Assembly: GCA_943359345.1 (NCBI GenBank)
Contig: CALRHE010000003.1
Coordinates: 82-64,081, forward strand
Direction of reading: 5' to 3'
Length of the DNA stretch: 64,000 nt
Source of the DNA: Candidatus Uhrbacteria bacterium
Lineage (GTDB): Bacteria > Patescibacteriota > Patescibacteriia > UBA9934
The position numbers were made by a program, and so were the translations under genes. The notes under the pieces are model-generated. The model was not told where the DNA came from and did not search any database. It saw only the letters and a program-made list of their open reading frames with translations. Shown here piece by piece: positions 2,968 through 29,259 of the stretch; position 1 is the stretch's first letter, and each line of letters opens with the position of its first letter.

Positions 2968-4869
2968 ATGCCTTACTCGACAGTTATCGAAGCTTTGTCC
3001 GCTAACGATCTTGAAAGTGCCAGCAAAATGTTATTAAACGAGATTTTAGAGGCCACTAAGACTAAAAATAGTTGGGACTGTCCACACTATACAGCTGACA
3101 AAAGCGTGCAGCAGGGCATCAAAATCGACGAGAGTCGTAACGAGTGGTTTACCTATTTTGGACTTGAGAATTTACGTGATCGTTACTTCCTGAAAAACGC
3201 CGCCGGTGAGATTTGCGAAAACCCCCAAACTTTCTACGCTCGAGTAGCCACTGGCATGGCTCGCAATGATGCTGCTCACGCTCAGCAGCTGTACGAGATT
3301 TTAAGTAAGGGTTGGTTTATTGCGGCCACGCCGACGCTCATGAACATCGGGACCAACAAAGGTTTGCCGATCTCGTGTTTTTTGAACACGGTACCCGACA
3401 CGCTGGAAGGTATTTTTGATGTCTTCCGTGAGAACGCTTTCTTGTCCAAGTACGGTGGCGGGATCGGCACTGACTGGTCTCAGCTGCGTGGTCAGAACGC
3501 GCCTTTAAAGGCTAGTGGTCTGAAATCATCGGGCGTGATTCCGTTTTTGAAGATCATGGATTCCGAAACAATCGCAATTTCGCGCAACTCCACCCGTCGT
3601 GGGGCTGCTGCCGCTTACCTGCGTATTGATCACCCTGATATCGAAGACTTTTTGGAGCTGCGTAAGCCTGGCGGCGATCAAGATCGACGTTGCATGAACA
3701 TTAATAACGGTTTGGTGTTAACCGATGCTTTCATGGAAGCTGTCGAGGCAGGGAAGCCCTATCAGCTGGTTGATCCGCACTATGGCACAGTGGCCCGCGA
3801 GCTAGACGCCTTAACCATGTGGCGTAAGATTTTGTCCATGCGGGCTGAAACTGGCGAGCCGTACATGATTTTTATAGATACCGTCAACAAAGCCAGACCC
3901 CAGCATCACAAAGATCTTGGTTTGATGGTGCGTCAGAGTAACTTGTGTACCGAAATTGTTCTACCAACCGATGAAACTAGAACCGCTGTTTGTTGCCTTG
4001 GTAATCTCAACCTTGAGAAGTGGGAAGACTGGAAAGATCACATCGAAGACATAACTTACGTGTGCGTCAAAGCGCTTGATAATAATCTAGAAACTTTTTG
4101 CGACCTGGCCGATCCGGTGGAATTCAAGAAAGCCATCAACTCGGTTAAGCACGAGCGTTCCATTGGTCTCGGGGTCATGGGTTACCATGGCTATCTCATG
4201 TCCAAGAACGTGCCTTTTGAGAGCGTGCTGGCTCGGGCTATCAACAAAGAAATTTTTGGAGCTATTCACAAGCACGCTACGGCTGCGAGTGTGAAGTTGG
4301 GTCAGGAACGGGGTTTGCCACAGGATGGTGGGGTCCAACGTAATAGCTATGTGACTAGTATTCAACCGACTGCCTCAACCGCCTTTATTTGTGGCGAAGC
4401 GTCGCCCTGTGTTGAACCCATCTCTGGAAATGCTTATCTACAAAAAACCTTGTCAGGGAGTTTTCTTGTCAAAAATAAGTTCTTGATACGTTTCTTAGAA
4501 ACTAAGGCCATGAATACATCTGAAGTTTGGAAGCGTATCATTGCTGATAAGGGGAGCGTCATTAATGTTGCGGGGTTGACCGAGGACGAGAAGGCAGTGT
4601 TCCGTACCGGTTACGAGATGAACATGCGCGAAATTGTGCAGCAAGCTGCTGATCGGCAACCGTTTATAGATCAGGCTCAGTCTCTCAACTTGTTCTTTGC
4701 TACGCCAGTGAGCGGTAAGTATCTGAACGAGGTCCACATGCAGGCCTGGAAGTCAGGCTTAAAATCTCTTTACTACCTCCGTTCCGCTGCCCCGATTGAA
4801 GCTGATAGCATTTCGATGCAAACCACAAAACGTGACGTCGCCAGCGAGGAATGTGCTGTCTGTCAATAA
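2968..4869 (+). CDS. nrdA: Ribonucleotide reductase class I alpha (R1) subunit, short form without an N-terminal ATP-cone.
   Basis: 633 aa with the catalytic NLCTEI motif, a C-terminal YYLRS tyrosine pair, and no VxKRDG ATP-cone signature at the N-terminus. Confidence 0.85.
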   Translation: MPYSTVIEALSANDLESASKMLLNEILEATKTKNSWDCPHYTADKSVQQGIKIDESRNEWFTYFGLENLRDRYFLKNAAGEICENPQTFYARVATGMARNDAAHAQQLYEILSKGWFIAATPTLMNIGTNKGLPISCFLNTVPDTLEGIFDVFRENAFLSKYGGGIGTDWSQLRGQNAPLKASGLKSSGVIPFLKIMDSETIAISRNSTRRGAAAAYLRIDHPDIEDFLELRKPGGDQDRRCMNINNGLVLTDAFMEAVEAGKPYQLVDPHYGTVARELDALTMWRKILSMRAETGEPYMIFIDTVNKARPQHHKDLGLMVRQSNLCTEIVLPTDETRTAVCCLGNLNLEKWEDWKDHIEDITYVCVKALDNNLETFCDLADPVEFKKAINSVKHERSIGLGVMGYHGYLMSKNVPFESVLARAINKEIFGAIHKHATAASVKLGQERGLPQDGGVQRNSYVTSIQPTASTAFICGEASPCVEPISGNAYLQKTLSGSFLVKNKFLIRFLETKAMNTSEVWKRIIADKGSVINVAGLTEDEKAVFRTGYEMNMREIVQQAADRQPFIDQAQSLNLFFATPVSGKYLNEVHMQAWKSGLKSLYYLRSAAPIEADSISMQTTKRDVASEECAVCQ

Positions 4870-21077: not shown

Positions 21078-21584
21078 ATGCACGATGATCTTAGAGAAGG
21101 CGTGAATCTGCTTAGCCCTGAGGCAGGCCCGCGGGCAACCGAGGCGGGTTTTGAAGTTGAAGACGCTGCACCCGAGTCAGCTCCACGACGTGATGAAACT
21201 TCTAGTCTTGATAAGCAGCAGCTGGCAAACGTCAAAGCAACCATCATCTACCAGTCGCCGACAGTTGAGTTACCCAGCAAAGATCCGGTCCTAACTAGAA
21301 TTGAAGATATTTTGGCAGAGAATTTGGGGGAGCTTTACTCACAATTGCCCGAGGACAAGCGTGAAGCTTTTAAACACAAGGGTGAAGAAGTGGCTAGCGC
21401 CATTCACGCCATGATGACTACGGCCCGAGTTAAAGCTCATCAGATTTTAAGGTTGCTCGGGGATTGGCTACACCTGATCCCTGGAGTCAACGTGTATTTT
21501 TTGCAACAGGAAGCCAAGCTTAAGCTGGATAAGGTTATGGACTACGTGGATGAACAAGCTAAGTCATCACAAGACGTCATGTGA
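21078..21584 (+). CDS. Hypothetical protein translationally coupled (ATGA overlap) to the downstream ATPase.
   Basis: ORF of 168 aa with no recognisable motifs and no TM helix. Its stop overlaps the start of the 835-aa ATPase. Confidence 0.45.
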   Translation: MHDDLREGVNLLSPEAGPRATEAGFEVEDAAPESAPRRDETSSLDKQQLANVKATIIYQSPTVELPSKDPVLTRIEDILAENLGELYSQLPEDKREAFKHKGEEVASAIHAMMTTARVKAHQILRLLGDWLHLIPGVNVYFLQQEAKLKLDKVMDYVDEQAKSSQDVM

Positions 21585-24088
21585 TTGGTGCTCAACAACT
21601 CCAAGCTATCTTAATGTCAGTTCTGCCGACGCTCATCATTTTGGGAGTTCTTTTAGTTATTCTCAGTTTGGCTGCTTGGAAGCTGCGCCGGCGCTTTATG
21701 AAGCGAGCCCAAGCCCGTGATGGGGCCAATACCTTGGTTACCTTGCGCATCACGATTCCACGTTTTAAAAATGATGAAGACACCAAGCAGGCTGACAATT
21801 CAAGCAATCAGAAAGATAAGATCGCTGTGGCGGAAACTTTATTCTCGGCTTTGGGTGGACTCAAGCCGGAGCGAGGTTTTTGGAGCTGGTTAGTCGGGCG
21901 CACCGATAACTTTGCGCTTGAGATTGTGGCCCACGAAAAACTTGTGACTTTTTACGTCACAGTACCCCGTCGTTATCAAGAATTTGTAGAACAGCAAATT
22001 CATGCGCAGTGGAGCGACACCTTTGTTGAGCCGGTCGAGGATTACAACATGTTTGCGCCTACTGGCACAGTTGTGGCCGGTTACTTGAAATTTAAGAAAG
22101 AAAACTTATTACCGCTAAAAACTTATAAAGATATTGACGGCGACCCTTTGAACGCACTTACAAACGCCCTGTCTAAGGTGGGGGAGAGTGACGGCCTGGC
22201 CATTCAATACGTATTGCGACCGGCAGCTAGTGGTTGGAGATCGCTCGGTTTGAAGGTCGTCAAAAACATGCAGGCGGGCATGACGTTTAATGAGGCTAAG
22301 CACGGTAAAAAATCACACAGTTGGTTTGCTAACAAGGATACGCTCGAAAAAGACAAGGAAAAAATGCGTGAACGCAAACTTTCGTCCGCCGAAACCAAGA
22401 TGCTTGAAGGTATTGAGAATAAGCTCAGTAAAGCCGCGCTAGAGACCACCATTCGGGTAGTGGCTTCGGCTGGCACCAGCGAGCAAGCCATGATGTATCT
22501 GACTAATGTCTTACAGGCTTTTGGCCAATACAACATTTACGAGTACGGTAATGCTTTTGAGAAGAGTATTCCGTCTTCCAGACACGCCATCATCGAGGGT
22601 TTTATTTTCCGCACGCATAGTTCTAAGCATAGCTTGATTTTGACCACTGAAGAGCTGGCTAGTTTGTGGCACTTGCCGTTGCCCACCACTGAAACCCCGA
22701 ATATTCGCTGGATGAATGCGCGTACAGCGCCGGCACCCACCAACACCCCAACCAGCGGTTTGCACCTGGGTTTCAATGTCTACCGTGGTCGCCAGACCGA
22801 GATTTACATGCAGGACGCTGATCGACGGCGTCACATGTACATGATCGGTAAAACTGGTTCTGGTAAGACTGAGTTAATCAAGAACCTGGCCCTACAAGAT
22901 ATCAAAAATGGTAAAGGCGTAGCTGTGATTGATCCGCACGGTGATTTGGCCGACGACTTGTTGGGCTTGATTCCCAAGGAACGCTTGGATGACGTGATTT
23001 ATTTCAACCCTTCTGACCTAGAGCGTCCGATGGGCTTGAATATGCTTGAGGCGCCTGATGAAAACATGCGAGATTTTGTGGTCCAGGAAATGATCAGTAT
23101 TTTCTACATGTTATTTCCGCCGGAGATGATCGGTCCTATGTTCGAGCACAACATGCGTAACTACATGTTGACACTCATGGCCGACGTGGATAATCCTGGC
23201 ACCATTGTTGAGATCCCGCGCATGATTTCCGATGACGCTTTTCAAAAAGCCTGGGTGGCCAAGGTTAAGGATCCGCTCGTGCGGTCTTTCTGGGAAGACG
23301 AAATGGCTAAAACCTCTGATTATCACAAGAGTGAAATGATGGGCTACCTGGTGTCTAAGGTAGGTCGGTTTGTAGAGAACGAAATGATGCGCAATATCAT
23401 CGGGCAGACTAAGTCTGCTTTCAATTTCAGGGACATCATGGATAACGGCAAGATTTTGTTGGTTAACTTGTCGAAAGGTAAAACTGGTGAAGTTAACGCC
23501 TCACTTCTTGGTTTGATTTTAGTGGCTAAATTACAGATGGCCGCATTCTCTAGAGCCGATGTGCCTGAAGATCAACGACAAGACTTTTATTTGTACATTG
23601 ACGAATTCCAGAACTTCGTGACCCCTTCAATTGCGACCATTCTGTCTGAGGCTCGGAAGTATCGCCTGAATTTAGTGCTTGCTCACCAGTACATGGGGCA
23701 GCTGGTGCGTGATGGCAAGCCAGAAATCCGTGACGCTGTGCTTGGTAACGTCGGTACCATGATGGTGGCCCGGGTTGGTCCTGAGGATATTGAAACACTA
23801 GGTAAAGTGTTCGAACCAACGTTTACCGGGCATGATTTAATGAATACCGACATGTTCACTTGGAACGTGAAGATGATCATCAACAACGCTCAAGCCAAAC
23901 CGTTTACCATGGAAGCTTATCCGCCCACCAAGGCCAGCCGACAGGTGGCCGAGGCCCTTAAGGACATTTCTCGTCTCCAGTACGGGCAGGATAAAGATTC
24001 AGTCGCCAATGACATTTTAGAGCGAGCTGGCTATGCCTCACGTAAGCAGGTTCCTCCCACACCACCGTCGGTACCAACGAGTTTATAG
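21581..24088 (+). CDS. Membrane-anchored VirB4/VirD4-superfamily (TraC/TrbE/TraG-like) type-IV-secretion-type ATPase.
   Basis: N-terminal TM helix. A Walker A (GKTGSGKT) at about residue 425 is followed by a VIDPHGD motif, then Walker B (YIDEFQNF) and an LVLAHQYMGQL (ATQS-like) motif. Confidence 0.55.
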   Translation: MIGAQQLQAILMSVLPTLIILGVLLVILSLAAWKLRRRFMKRAQARDGANTLVTLRITIPRFKNDEDTKQADNSSNQKDKIAVAETLFSALGGLKPERGFWSWLVGRTDNFALEIVAHEKLVTFYVTVPRRYQEFVEQQIHAQWSDTFVEPVEDYNMFAPTGTVVAGYLKFKKENLLPLKTYKDIDGDPLNALTNALSKVGESDGLAIQYVLRPAASGWRSLGLKVVKNMQAGMTFNEAKHGKKSHSWFANKDTLEKDKEKMRERKLSSAETKMLEGIENKLSKAALETTIRVVASAGTSEQAMMYLTNVLQAFGQYNIYEYGNAFEKSIPSSRHAIIEGFIFRTHSSKHSLILTTEELASLWHLPLPTTETPNIRWMNARTAPAPTNTPTSGLHLGFNVYRGRQTEIYMQDADRRRHMYMIGKTGSGKTELIKNLALQDIKNGKGVAVIDPHGDLADDLLGLIPKERLDDVIYFNPSDLERPMGLNMLEAPDENMRDFVVQEMISIFYMLFPPEMIGPMFEHNMRNYMLTLMADVDNPGTIVEIPRMISDDAFQKAWVAKVKDPLVRSFWEDEMAKTSDYHKSEMMGYLVSKVGRFVENEMMRNIIGQTKSAFNFRDIMDNGKILLVNLSKGKTGEVNASLLGLILVAKLQMAAFSRADVPEDQRQDFYLYIDEFQNFVTPSIATILSEARKYRLNLVLAHQYMGQLVRDGKPEIRDAVLGNVGTMMVARVGPEDIETLGKVFEPTFTGHDLMNTDMFTWNVKMIINNAQAKPFTMEAYPPTKASRQVAEALKDISRLQYGQDKDSVANDILERAGYASRKQVPPTPPSVPTSL

Positions 24089-26051: not shown

Positions 26052-26125
26052 TCCGGGATCGTCTAAAGGCAGGACGAGGGACTCTGAATCCCTTAATCTT
26101 GGTTCGAATCCAAGTCCCGGAACCA
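26052..26125 (+). tRNA. tRNA-Gln (anticodon CUG), with an encoded CCA end.
   Basis: Manual cloverleaf fold. Acceptor TCCGGGA/TCCCGGA (U1:A72 as in bacterial tRNA-Gln), D-stem GTCT/GGAC with a GG loop, anticodon stem AGGGA/TCCCT, loop CT-CTG-AA, T-arm CTTGG-TTCGAAT-CCAAG, discriminator A and CCA. Confidence 0.85.
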
Positions 26126-26166
26126 CAAAAACACCTTTGCTTCGGCGGAGGTGTTTTTGTGGTTCC
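26125..26166 (+). terminator. Long hairpin capped by a UUCG tetraloop, acting as an intrinsic terminator after tRNA-Gln.
   Basis: ACAAAAACACCUUUGC-UUCG-GCGGAGGUGUUUUUGU. The inner GC-rich stem is followed by a U5 tract. Together with the tRNA 3' end it forms a 56-nt palindrome (26115-26170). Confidence 0.6.
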
Positions 26167-26292
26167 GGGACAGAGAAAGCCACCTGCTTGGCTTTCGACG
26201 GATTCGAACGCCGGAGCGATGTGCAGATACCAATCGGCACTGCGAGGCGGTGGCCAGGCCGATGGGAGTGACGGCGACCCGAGAGCCGAGGC

Positions 26293-26313
26293 CGAATCCA
26301 AGTCCCGGAACCA
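26293..26313 (+). repeat. Direct duplicate of the 21-nt 3' end of tRNA-Gln (CGAATCCAAGTCCCGGAACCA), an att-like integration scar.
   Basis: Identical to 26105-26125. There is no upstream D-arm or T-stem partner, so it is a fragment and not a second tRNA. Confidence 0.7.
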
Positions 26314-26445: not shown

Positions 26446-26736
26446 TTACAAATGAGCGAGATGCTGTTCGAGTTCGCGGATAAACCCCTGATCCACCATA
26501 TCCACGATTGTCCCAAAATCCCTTGCGTTACGGTTCAAGCGATCTGGTGCCCAGGCAAGGATGCCGTCGAACCGCTTCAGCTTTATATCGTCAATGAGAC
26601 GATTGAATTCTGGTCGTTGGCCTGACGCCTTGGCTGAATGGCTTTCACGACGTATCTCGGTGACGAGCAATCCGTCTCGTTCCGCCGTGGCAAGCATCTC
26701 TTTCACCTGTGCTTCGAAGCTCCCTATATTCTCCAT
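26446..26736 (-). pseudogene. Truncated serine recombinase (resolvase/invertase catalytic domain only, 96 aa).
   Basis: IGSFEAQ (catalytic Ser/Gln position), SGQRPEFNRLIDDI and ILAWAPDRLNRNARDF match the resolvase core (RVSTxxQ ... SGxxxxRPxLxxLL ... VVxKLDRLGRS). The ORF stops right after helix D and has no E-helix or HTH domain. Confidence 0.6.
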
Positions 26737-26854: not shown

Positions 26855-28561
26855 ATGGCTCCTCGAGAATTTCCGCGATCCCCCGAACATCAACAACAAA
26901 GAGATGAGCTCGCTCGATCCGTTAAAGTGGACCGACAAGAACGCGACGAACTTAGACAGGAGTCCAAAACGCTTACAGGGCGGTTGCGGAAAGTTCTTGG
27001 CGGTAAAGATGCAAACGCGTTGGCGGATGTGGCGGCGAGGTCGGCCGATGAAAAACTGGCAGTTGGTCGAAGCGGGCTTGAGACAAAAGAGCGGGCACAT
27101 GAGTGGGATCAACTTGCCTTTACGCTGGAAAAAGCCGAGGAATTCGTTCGGCGAATACCGAGTATCGCAGAAGATGAAACGGAAAAGATGTGGCGAGCCG
27201 TGACTTCTCATCGTTCAGTTTTTGAAGAAGCATTGCAGGATTCGGAACGCGCAGGAGTCGTTCTCAAGCACCTCTCCTGGTTTTCACGTAATGGACGAGG
27301 AGCAAGTGGAAATGAGGCCGAAGCTGAATACTTCACATGGGTTCGTGAGCATCTGCCGTTTGTTGCAAGCTTGGCGGAAAAAGATGACGTAAATGCTCGT
27401 GGTGGATTTGCACGGGCGTTGGTCGACCTTTGGCGAAGGGTTCCCGAATCCCGAGATGAAGTTATCGCAATAATAAATGCGCATATAGATGTTATTGATG
27501 GTCTCGCGCGTACTGCAGAAGCGGATGCGGATTTTGCAGAGGCGCGGTCACTGCTTGGTGTTGTGCTTCGAAAGGGATCAAAAGAGGCAAAGGCTCAGGT
27601 AATGGAAAGTATCGGGTCGGTTTTTCGTCAGAAAGGCCAGCGCGCTGAAGATATTGTACGACTTGTATTTGATTGCGTGGGAGAGAATGTTAAAGATAGT
27701 GATGCGCTTGAACGGTCATTTGTCGCAAAACTTGCCGAAGCCTACGATATGCAGCCCGAGGGCTTGCTTCATGCATGGCGACTGTCACACGATAGAGGCG
27801 CAACGGTAGAACATATGCGATCGCTCTGTCGTCTTGAAGAACAAAGCCCTGGTGCGGCAAAACGTTTGGATGAAGATTTTGGCGTTCGCGCCTTCGCACG
27901 GTATCCTATAGAATTGCTCCTCCGACAAGCAGCCGATGCGGATAAAGGAAAGCCTTATGGCGTAATCATCATGGCGCGTGGCGATCATAACGGGAGTTTT
28001 CATCGACAAGCCTATAAGTGGTCGGATTTATTGAAAGATATAGGCGATACTCACGCTATCCGTATCATCGAAGCAGAAAGTAAGGATGAACTCACTGCGT
28101 ATGTATTAGGCATGTACCAGCGATATCAAGAGGACGGAAAGATATCGTTCGTACACATGAACGGTCACGGAAGTCCAGAGAGCATCAACCTCGGATACGA
28201 ACTCTTGCCATTTCAAGTGGATGAACGATTTGAGTTGCATCGTCTTCCTGGCCGTTTAGAAAAACAGCTCACTAAAAATGATTTATTTGGTGTTGGATAT
28301 CGCGAAGCTATAGGAATTTTTGAAGAGCATCCGACATTTGTACTTTCCTCCTGCTCAACAGGGGCGTCGCTAGGCATCGGACAGGAACTCTCGGCAATGT
28401 ACGGCGCAGAAGTTGTCGCGCCGCGTGATCCGACGAGCTTAGATCATATTCGAGCAAAGGTTGTGGATGGAAGAGTCCAGTTTGACGCCCGTTTCCAGGG
28501 CGGCGATTGGATTACGCGTCACTATGATCGAGGAAGGCTCATCGAGGCCCCTACGGAGTAG
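26855..28561 (+). CDS. Two-domain protein with an N-terminal charged alpha-helical region and a C-terminal caspase/CHAT-like (clan CD, C14-like) peptidase domain.
   Basis: A GVIIMARGDHNGSF beta-strand start leads to ISFVHMNGHG (hydrophobic strand then His-Gly), and about 65 aa later TFVLSSCSTG (hydrophobic strand then Cys). This mirrors the His/Cys dyad arrangement of metacaspase/CHAT domains. The gene is cargo next to the recombinase remnant. Confidence 0.5.
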   Translation: MAPREFPRSPEHQQQRDELARSVKVDRQERDELRQESKTLTGRLRKVLGGKDANALADVAARSADEKLAVGRSGLETKERAHEWDQLAFTLEKAEEFVRRIPSIAEDETEKMWRAVTSHRSVFEEALQDSERAGVVLKHLSWFSRNGRGASGNEAEAEYFTWVREHLPFVASLAEKDDVNARGGFARALVDLWRRVPESRDEVIAIINAHIDVIDGLARTAEADADFAEARSLLGVVLRKGSKEAKAQVMESIGSVFRQKGQRAEDIVRLVFDCVGENVKDSDALERSFVAKLAEAYDMQPEGLLHAWRLSHDRGATVEHMRSLCRLEEQSPGAAKRLDEDFGVRAFARYPIELLLRQAADADKGKPYGVIIMARGDHNGSFHRQAYKWSDLLKDIGDTHAIRIIEAESKDELTAYVLGMYQRYQEDGKISFVHMNGHGSPESINLGYELLPFQVDERFELHRLPGRLEKQLTKNDLFGVGYREAIGIFEEHPTFVLSSCSTGASLGIGQELSAMYGAEVVAPRDPTSLDHIRAKVVDGRVQFDARFQGGDWITRHYDRGRLIEAPTE

Positions 28562-28835
28562 AAACCGGAAGGGTTTTTCAGTGAGACATAGGGAGAAGTT
28601 CATATATCGCAATAATATTCCTGATATTAGCCGTAAATGTTTAAATGAGACGCTGTCTCAATACCCCGTATGTAGTGTCTTATTTGTCTCATTTCACCCC
28701 CAAGCCGTGTTCCACTTTGTGCCAGTTTTAACCCTCAGTTCTATCCGACCGGGACAGGGTTGGCAGGCAGGTAGAAGGGTGCCTCAAAGCCCCCTCATAG
28801 GCTCCAATCTAAACCGGGCCGCAGAACCAGTAAAA

Positions 28836-28864
28836 CCCCCAGACTTCGGTCGTGGGGTTTTATT
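28836..28864 (+). terminator. Intrinsic terminator with a UUCG tetraloop (CCCCAGAC-UUCG-GUCgUGGGG followed by UUUUAUU).
   Basis: An 8-bp stem with a 1-nt bulge is flanked by an A-tract and a U-tract. Confidence 0.6.
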
Positions 28865-28878
28865 GACCAGAGACAGTT

Positions 28879-29259
28879 TTGTCTGTACGCTTGCGGCAGT
28901 TTATGAAGCTTTCTGGCCAAGTGGTCCGCGGACAAGGTTTTGCTACGCTTGCTTTTGGTATCCCAACAGCCAATCTAGAGTTTAACGAAGCGATTACTCT
29001 TAAACCGGGTGCTTATGCGGCTTATACTTATGTAGGATCGGAGCGTTACGCATCAGTGGCTTATACGGGTCCGCAGGGGAGTGAAAAATTTGAGGTGCAT
29101 TTATTTGATTTTTCAGGAGATTTATACGATCAGATGCTTGAGATCGAGGTTTTAAAGATGGTAAGCCCCCATGTAGCCTGGGAAAGTGAGGAGCAAATGA
29201 AGGCTAAGGTGGTGGCTGACGTGGAGCTTGCCAAGGCCTACTTTTCCACAGCAATCTAG
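28879..29259 (+). CDS. ribF: Riboflavin kinase (flavokinase domain, monofunctional).
   Basis: GQVVRGQGFATLAFGIPTANL ... EVHLFDFSGDLYDQMLEIEVLKMV matches the flavokinase core (GxVVxGxGRGxxLGFPTANL ... EvHlldFxgDLYG). The start may be the internal Met at 28903. Confidence 0.65.
   Translation: MSVRLRQFMKLSGQVVRGQGFATLAFGIPTANLEFNEAITLKPGAYAAYTYVGSERYASVAYTGPQGSEKFEVHLFDFSGDLYDQMLEIEVLKMVSPHVAWESEEQMKAKVVADVELAKAYFSTAI

Follow-up and report, generated by a model that had tools for sequence, protein, structure and literature searches.

The 64,000-nucleotide stretch of the Candidatus Uhrbacteria bacterium contig CALRHE010000003.1 that we analyzed (the window) carries at positions 26855..28561 of the forward strand a complete gene for a 568-amino-acid protein with a variable helical arm and a conserved C-terminal module that looks like a protease. 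The alpha/beta domain that ends this module is best read, in its predicted model, as a His-Cys hydrolase of the caspase-hemoglobinase type (clan CD). This reading is supported because His438 and Cys500 are invariant among the relatives, they follow consecutive strands, the high-probability structural matches belong to clan CD, and both residues fall in the register of caspase-3. We consider it rather probable that the protein is an active cysteine peptidase or transpeptidase of the clan CD type. The family to which it belongs is very large and has no name in the sequence and domain libraries searched, and our literature searches found no paper describing it.

The gene starts with an ATG at 26855 and ends with a TAG at 28559-28561 (568 codons plus the stop, from the list of open reading frames [ORFs] and the translation), and all its features given below lie on the forward strand. 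It lies where a preliminary description based on the letters of the DNA had placed it and is the sole long ORF at these positions, with stops throughout the opposite strand. The three motifs quoted in that description are also present (GVIIMARGDHNG, residues 369-380; ISFVHMNGHG, 430-439; TFVLSSCSTG, 494-503), while the His and Cys that it placed at about 440 and 505 are real residues whose exact positions are 438 and 500. The gene is genuine and purifying selection acts on it, given a ratio of nonsynonymous to synonymous substitution rates (dN/dS) of 0.107 against the 97%-identical ortholog on contig L045 and the 1,631 clusters of relatives found with its C-terminal profile. All 18 amino acid changes relative to this ortholog fall before residue 332, and there are none after residue 331. 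With the 568-amino-acid protein as the query, Pfam, NCBIfam, and phmmer searches against all PDB chains returned only noise. A word-indexed search of 5.8 billion proteins, in which the candidates are limited and the relatives are therefore lower bounds, gave at least three (P0001, P0002, and P0003, with 97%, 78%, and 28% identity), and a second search of this kind gave at least five matches. The motifs H-G-S-P and S-C-S-T-G-A are unchanged even in P0003.

To define the family, a profile of residues 290-568 (A2), built from four sequences (the window protein and P0001-P0003), was run exhaustively over 1.84 billion cluster representatives (clusters at 50% identity), and it matched 1,631 clusters at E ≤ 1e-3, 1,134 at E ≤ 1e-10, and 396 at E ≤ 1e-30. 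A typical member has ~520 amino acids, with a conserved module of ~270 amino acids at the extreme C terminus (median tail of 1 residue) and a variable region ahead of it (median of 253 amino acids). Asp377, Glu406, His438, and Cys500 are conserved in 152/152 representatives and in 48/48 proteins from independently fetched loci, both bacterial and archaeal and with the distant archaeal ones included; conservation of the His and Cys in homologs was one of the checks proposed in the preliminary description. Asp377 (GAT codon, 27983..27985) belongs to the invariant loop after the first strand (D-x-N-G-[AS]-F) and is a candidate third triad member or S1-pocket residue, whereas Glu406 (GAA, 28070..28072), at the end of the second strand, could have a role in the S1 pocket or a structural one. 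His438-Gly439 (CAC GGA, 28166..28171, the His codon being 28166-28168) are the predicted catalytic His and oxyanion-hole Gly, and the predicted nucleophile, Cys500 (28352-28354), lies within Ser499-Cys500-Ser501-Thr502-Gly503 (S-C-S-T-G, 28349..28363). Gly439 is present in 149/152 representatives and all 48 locus proteins and Gly503 in 98 to 100%; R349, Y350, and L355 reach 98 to 99% in the 152 representatives, and R349/Y350 are retained in most of the 48 locus proteins. The distance from the His to the Cys is usually ~46 residues in the family and 62 in the window protein, because of a lineage-specific insertion at residues ~448-470 (28196..28264), where the columns of the 152-sequence alignment are >90% gaps and the model has its lowest predicted local distance difference test (pLDDT) values, 57 to 76.

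An AlphaFold2 (AF2) model made from 4 sequences was unusable in the C-terminal domain (pLDDT <50); a model of residues 290-568 made from 150 family sequences reached a pLDDT of 91.6 and a predicted template modeling score of 0.90 (model m19b1f71588f1). It begins with a five-helix subdomain (residues 297-360, 27743..27934) with 80 to 99% column conservation in the 152 representatives and helices with a pLDDT of 85 to 98, in which the conserved positions are W308, E328, P332-G333, L338, F342-G343, F347, R349-Y350-P351, L355, and Q358. The predicted alpha/beta catalytic domain (residues 366-568, 27950..28558), delimited by the AF2 model, Foldseek, and hhalign, follows in the order beta1 (368-374), helix, beta2 (401-407), helix, beta3 (430-436), His438, a loop with the insertion, helix, beta4 (489-498), Cys500, helix, beta5, and a C-terminal beta-meander (DSSP assignment). 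The predicted model therefore has the arrangement by which clan CD is recognized, with His-Gly after one strand, Cys after the next, and the His before the Cys.

The Foldseek comparison of the residue 290-568 model with the PDB, another check that had been proposed, gave no match below E = 1e-3, and the matches with a probability of 0.84 to 0.99 were all clan CD peptidases, from families C80, C14, C11, and C13. The best one was the cysteine protease domain (CPD) of the MARTX toxin of Vibrio cholerae, from family C80 (3gcd, E 1.7e-3; also 3fzy, 3eeb, and 8yjc), and the others included caspases 1, 3, 4, 6, 7, and 11, a Bacteroides C11 enzyme (6n9j, probability of 0.99), legumain (7fql, probability of 0.99), and the PIGK subunit of the glycosylphosphatidylinositol (GPI) transamidase (7wld_K). 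We also aligned the 152-sequence family alignment by local hhalign with caspase-3, using a sequence checked against the PDB and 120 aligned orthologs, a shallow profile in which the seeded homolog search gave near-identical orthologs only. There were 141 collinear columns from beta1 to beta5, with H438-G439 opposite His121-Gly122 and C500 opposite Cys163 of caspase-3 (P = 0.011). The caspase-type His-Cys domain put forward in the preliminary description is supported by conservation, strand order, structural matches, and register.

Several results weigh against a clan CD assignment. The fold evidence is weak, with a best Foldseek E value of 1.7e-3 and template modeling (TM) scores of 0.28 to 0.41, and KaiC/RecA-type alpha/beta proteins appear at similar E values, with lower probability. 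The hhalign probability is only 3.7% against the shallow caspase-3 profile, and the family alignment gave nothing meaningful against a single caspase-3 or legumain sequence; the D-H-N-G-A-F loop may nonetheless mirror the S-N42-G-W loop of legumain. Neither phmmer nor profile searches of PDB sequences provided an HMMER link to any solved structure: profile A2 led to designed TIM barrels, helical-repeat matches from the N-terminal columns dominated the output of A3, and the domain-only profile A7 found nothing. Last, no Pfam model of clan CD reached its threshold in the window protein or in 78 diverse family members, which were scanned at E ≤ 10. The sole recurrent Pfam family among them was DUF4347 (11/78, best E of 1.8e-5), Peptidase_C14 (PF00656) was matched by 1/78 (E 0.017) and not by the window protein, and by hidden Markov model the latter is not a member of CHAT, C14, C50, C80, or DUF4347.

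With the named families of clan CD (C14 caspases and metacaspases, C13 legumain and GPI8, clostripain-like C11, C25 gingipains, C50 separase, and the C80 CPDs of MARTX and TcdB), the family shares the predicted sandwich, the H-G after a strand, the small-C-x-small-G after the next one, the His-before-Cys order, and the typical spacing of ~46 residues. It differs from them in adding the five-helix subdomain before beta1, with the signature W...LE..PG...EFGI..F.RYP.E.L..Q, and two further invariant acidic residues (D377 and E406), and the TM scores of its model to solved members are only 0.3 to 0.4. Separase (C50) has a comparable layout, an alpha-solenoid N-terminal region and then a C-terminal caspase-like domain, and is a regulatory endopeptidase that has no export signal and cuts after Arg at P1. 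It is however eukaryotic, has 1,200 to 2,200 amino acids, a pseudo-protease domain, and securin as a partner, and we found no Peptidase_C50 match in the family, nor did the top 50 fold matches include a separase. DUF4347 (PF14252), an uncharacterized domain which we take to be placed by Pfam in the Peptidase_CD clan, is usually N-terminal in proteobacterial and cyanobacterial proteins of very large size with RTX/cadherin repeats, an architecture and taxonomy unlike those of our family. The family matches to DUF4347 cover the His...Cys core from beta2 to beta4 (profile positions 29-124 of 164), but the window protein and most members have no match, and two locus proteins score 13.3 and 15.5 bits against a cutoff of 24.6. 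The profile matches point to DUF4347 as a distant relative of which the family is not a member. DUF4347 has been noted in PA0256 of Pseudomonas aeruginosa, a candidate Hcp-dependent effector of the type VI secretion system (PMC8262886).

The CHAT family (PF12770, with the TPR-CHAT/Csx29 protein of type III-E CRISPR) is also similar in combining a helical-repeat arm with a C-terminal His-Cys caspase-like domain, and the local motif of the window protein resembles xLSACxT. The CHAT membership suggested in the preliminary description is not supported, as neither the window protein nor any of the 78 members matches the CHAT model at E ≤ 10. In addition, the repeats of our family look HEAT/ARM-like and not TPR, and there are no CRISPR, SAVED, TIR, or other partner genes near its loci.

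The protein would be a soluble, stand-alone enzyme of two modules with no transmembrane or signal-like hydrophobic segment. The first module (residues ~10-295) appears to be a fast-evolving HEAT/ARM-like solenoid that, by analogy with separase and TPR-CHAT proteases, most likely picks the protein substrate or a partner. In the second (297-568), the five-helix subdomain would pack onto the caspase-hemoglobinase-type alpha/beta domain. Here, Cys500, just after beta4, would be the nucleophile and His438, just after beta3 in a G-H-G motif, the general acid/base, with a caspase-like oxyanion hole made by the backbone amides of Gly439 and Cys500. Asp377, from the loop that follows beta1, and Glu406, which closes beta2, would share one sheet edge. 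Asp377 lies ~60 residues ahead of His438, presumably in the slot that gingipains (Glu152/Asp388) and legumain (Asn42) use for their third catalytic residue, and for that reason we propose that it may orient His438, although it could instead line the S1 pocket. Asp377, Glu406, or both may favor a basic residue (Arg or Lys) at P1. We infer the peptidase activity, the P1 preference, the role of the helical arm, and the biological substrate from these features, and an intracellular regulatory protease is our default reading.

The arm (residues ~10-295, 26882..27739), recognized with AF2, Foldseek, and the family profile, would serve for substrate or partner recognition. The preliminary description considered the first ~370 amino acids as one helical domain with no transmembrane segment. 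The AF2 model is indeed all-helical from residue 10 to ~360 (pLDDT mostly 70 to 90), and the window protein has no transmembrane-like segment, but the poorly conserved part stops near residue 295, and the helices of 297-360 are conserved jointly with the catalytic domain. Foldseek matched the arm to the HEAT repeats of CAND1 (probability of 1.00) and to importin-alpha, the N-terminal columns of the family profile match designed ARM/helical-repeat proteins (2.6e-6), and HEAT_ULK4 and Arm_2 were found in one long relative. Across the family the arm is poorly conserved; a transmembrane-like segment is absent in 152/153 members, and a signal-like N terminus is found in none of the 153. When compared to the ortholog on L045, a tract of the arm (26955..27654, nucleotides 101-800 of the gene) shows ~10% nucleotide divergence and contains 73/74 of the nucleotide differences, with the remaining ~900 nucleotides ≥99% identical and the ~1.2-kb flanks 99.2 to 99.3% identical. 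This tract looks like a homologous-recombination import limited to the helical arm.

The taxonomic distribution was obtained from a scan of GTDB species representatives restricted to two peptide patterns and seeded with an 8-sequence alignment (A6). It yielded 38 loci, 9 from the candidate phyla radiation (CPR/Patescibacteria) and 20 from DPANN-type archaea (mostly Micrarchaeota, plus Altiarchaeota, Woesearchaeota, and Bilamarchaeaceae), together with Omnitrophota, Bdellovibrionales, and a few proteobacterial or unclassified metagenome-assembled genomes (MAGs). In a crude neighbor-joining tree, the window protein falls in a bacterial, mainly CPR, clade with Omnitrophota, Bdellovibrionales, and one Altiarchaeota sequence, and the Micrarchaeota form separate clades. 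That archaeal sequence, from an Altiarchaeota MAG (L021, 6798-8765), groups with bacterial CPR-type sequences and not with the other archaeal ones (no bootstrap), which hints at interdomain transfer, with MAG contamination as another possible explanation.

Some relatives have unusual arrangements. In an Omnitrophota MAG (JAQUPI010000003.1; L017, 3-16694), one ORF of at least 5,563 amino acids spans the whole 16.7-kb locus, with the protease-like domain in the middle of the protein (amino acids ~2634-2897), its predicted catalytic residues intact, and several winged-helix helix-turn-helix-like segments after it (amino acids ~3300-3900). A Pseudomonadales MAG (L034, 1775-12464) has three consecutive paralogs of ~1,180 amino acids each, and a Micrarchaeia MAG (L036, 5654-8708) has two adjacent copies, with D-E-H-C kept in both cases.

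With the same chemistry, the enzyme could instead be an effector directed at the host or prey, which episymbiotic or predatory cells (CPR, DPANN, Omnitrophota, and Bdellovibrionales) would export by a route other than Sec so that it cleaves host proteins, with the variable arm tracking the targets in the host. We regard this as unlikely, although a number of observations fit it: 29 of the 38 loci are CPR or DPANN, with Omnitrophota and Bdellovibrionales among the others; the arm is highly variable next to a conserved catalytic module; the recombination tract between two near-identical strains is confined to the arm; and there are tandem paralogs (L034 and L036), a fusion into a giant protein (L017), and one Altiarchaeota sequence nested among bacterial ones in the crude tree. 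However, 152 of the 153 members have no signal peptide or transmembrane segment, there is no conserved secretion-system neighbor, the taxonomy comes from 38 loci of a pattern-limited scan, and the diverged tract is under purifying rather than diversifying selection overall. A VirD4-like gene lies 2.7 kb upstream, but it is parted from our gene by dnaX and a tRNA.

It is quite improbable, in our opinion, that the protein is not a peptidase at all and that the Asp-Glu-His-Cys tetrad binds a metal or performs some other hydrolysis or transfer (as an amidase, deamidase, or acyl-/peptidyl-transferase) on a Rossmann-like sandwich. The four invariant polar residues sit at four successive strand ends, the weak fold matches are accompanied by generic alpha/beta proteins such as KaiC at similar E values, and PIGK is among the Foldseek matches; clan CD includes transamidases and ligases (GPI8 and butelase). 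On the other side, G-H-G, S-C-x-T-G, the His-before-Cys order, and the ~46-residue spacing make up a clan CD signature, all the high-probability matches are to clan CD, and the His and Cys are in the caspase-3 register.

Since the top Foldseek match is the CPD of the V. cholerae MARTX toxin, along with three further entries of the same type, the domain could also be a self-processing module like that of MARTX or clostridial toxins (C80), which would cut its own chain, for instance, to free the helical arm. The position of the domain in the middle of the L017 protein would agree with such a role, and one may speculate that R349-Y350, just upstream of the catalytic domain, is a cis-cleavage site. 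We find this very improbable, as the domain is C-terminal in nearly all members (~500 amino acids), where there is only a helical arm to free, no Pfam match to Peptidase_C80 was obtained, the giant protein shows winged-helix repeats only and no toxin-like domains, and R349-Y350 are modeled with high confidence, in agreement with a structural role.

The genomic context bears on whether the gene could be mobile. The window is ordinary core chromosome of ~49% GC with bacterial gene content, peptidoglycan synthesis included. The local order is cysS, a VirD4/TrwB-like ATPase, dnaX, tRNA-Gln, the protease-like gene, riboflavin kinase, dus, a beta-CASP nuclease, FecR, and era, and farther out in the window are RNR, PBP2, a Mur ligase, DnaK/DnaJ, MurJ, AlaS, PriA, and ClpB. 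Upstream of the gene, tRNA-Gln(CTG) (26052..26125, forward strand; ARAGORN, Rfam tRNA 61.5 bits) is an integration target, and 168 bp downstream of it there is an att-like scar (26294..26313, forward strand), an exact 20-bp copy of the tRNA 3' end in direct orientation (2 matches versus 0 expected in shuffles). Homology with contig L045 breaks inside this repeat (blastn, ~26308), with L045 1-199 being unrelated DNA, and therefore the site has been used by different insertions in sister strains. Between the repeat and the gene, there is a 96-amino-acid fragment of a serine recombinase (26446..26736, reverse strand) with the resolvase N-terminal domain (PF00239, E 9.1e-11, profile positions 15-91 of 145), which is also found upstream of the 97%-identical ortholog.

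The remnant of a mobile element on which the preliminary description placed the gene is therefore real, but it only adjoins the gene, and nothing ties one to the other. That the gene is part of a mobile element or a defense system is not supported, because the only two direct copies of the tRNA-end repeat are both upstream, with no third copy bracketing the gene, the recombinase is a fragment, the same housekeeping genes are found downstream of the 78%-identical ortholog (P0002), and searches of the IMG/VR viral contigs, the PLSDB plasmids, and the INPHARED phages found no relatives.

There are other signals in this region. A perfect 20-bp inverted repeat with a 13-nucleotide loop (cccggaaccacaaaaacacc / ggtgtttttgtggttccggg, 26117-26169), not found in the terminator scan, could be a terminator or a relic of a recombination site; its 5' arm overlaps the last 9 nucleotides of tRNA-Gln, which makes it a third copy of the tRNA 3' end, in inverted orientation. 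At 21078-24088, an ORF of 168 amino acids with no Pfam match is translationally coupled to the 835-amino-acid VirD4/TrwB-type coupling protein or HerA-like ATPase, which matches the PADLOC model mad8 (E 1e-15) and HerA models. No other conjugation genes were identified in the window near this pair, and we rejected the ATPase as the mark of a conjugative element carrying our gene, as it sits between cysS and dnaX in the core chromosome. An ORF of 174 amino acids with a TTG start (28461-28985) overlaps the last 100 nucleotides of the gene and the start of the riboflavin kinase ORF; it has no Pfam or PADLOC match, none of the genes called on the P0002 contig corresponds to it, and it is probably not a gene. 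The third-position GC of the protease-like gene is 0.417, compared to 0.50 to 0.56 in cysS, the VirD4-like gene, dus, era, and dnaK and 0.436 in the beta-CASP gene, while its overall GC (0.50) is unremarkable.

Many prokaryotic clan CD/CHAT proteins are defense effectors, and the preliminary description had pointed to a conflict system. The protein would then be the CHAT/caspase-type effector of a mobile, multigene anti-phage system and be activated by a partner sensor. The tRNA-Gln, the att-like repeat, and the truncated recombinase, all 120 to 800 bp upstream, and the third-position GC, lower than in most neighbors, would agree with this role, which we nevertheless consider highly improbable and largely refuted. 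Apart from the lack of CHAT matches, of relatives on viral, plasmid, or phage records, and of a third repeat, and from the core-chromosome location with conserved downstream synteny, PADLOC (PADLOC-DB 2.0) had no match for the window protein or for two relatives (P0053 and P0003). The survey of neighbors that had been suggested in search of partner genes found none conserved: BLAST clustering of the neighbors in ~38 diverse loci gave shared genes only among closely related, syntenic Micrarchaeia, and when the Pfam families of 119 flanking genes were counted, none occurred more than 3 times, the types being housekeeping ones (glycosyltransferases, ABC transporters, MreB, FtsW, and CysS). Last, an alpha/beta-hydrolase-type enzyme with an H-G oxyanion motif and Ser501 in a nucleophile elbow (S-C-S-T-G), suggested by the likeness of small-x-Ser-x-small and an HG ~60 residues upstream to lipase/esterase motifs, is refuted, with Ser501 ruled out as the nucleophile because some of the 152 representatives carry E, A, N, W, or T in its place while Cys500 is invariant, no conserved acid-His pair downstream of the elbow in the 152-sequence alignment, and no such hydrolase among the top fold matches.

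Returning to the clan CD-type peptidase, the protein would represent a new family of a known kind, with clan CD-like chemistry and the layout of separase or TPR-CHAT proteases (a helical arm and a C-terminal caspase-like domain). If this is true, clan CD would gain a family marked by a helical subdomain of its own and by four invariant residues (Asp-Glu-His-Cys). For annotation, the lesson is that a His-Cys caspase-like domain beside a recombinase scar need not be a defense effector. CPR and DPANN are mostly uncultured organisms with tiny cells, and most of their genes are without known function. A broader reading, rather unlikely as a whole, would see here a caspase-fold protease family of at least 1,600 clusters (50% identity) that typifies prokaryotes living as host-dependent ultra-small cells or as predators (CPR/Patescibacteria, DPANN, Omnitrophota, and Bdellovibrionales), a shared episymbiont toolkit exchanged between bacteria and archaea, with a rapidly diversifying HEAT/ARM-like arm that targets proteins of the host or partner, and whose Asp-Glu-His-Cys active site sets it apart from every named clan CD family. 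If the assignment is true, one of the larger unannotated families of CPR and DPANN would gain a concrete biochemical function, that of a caspase-fold cysteine protease with a variable helical targeting arm, and a protease conserved in both bacterial and archaeal lineages of this kind could reasonably be expected to serve in regulated proteolysis or in manipulating the host.

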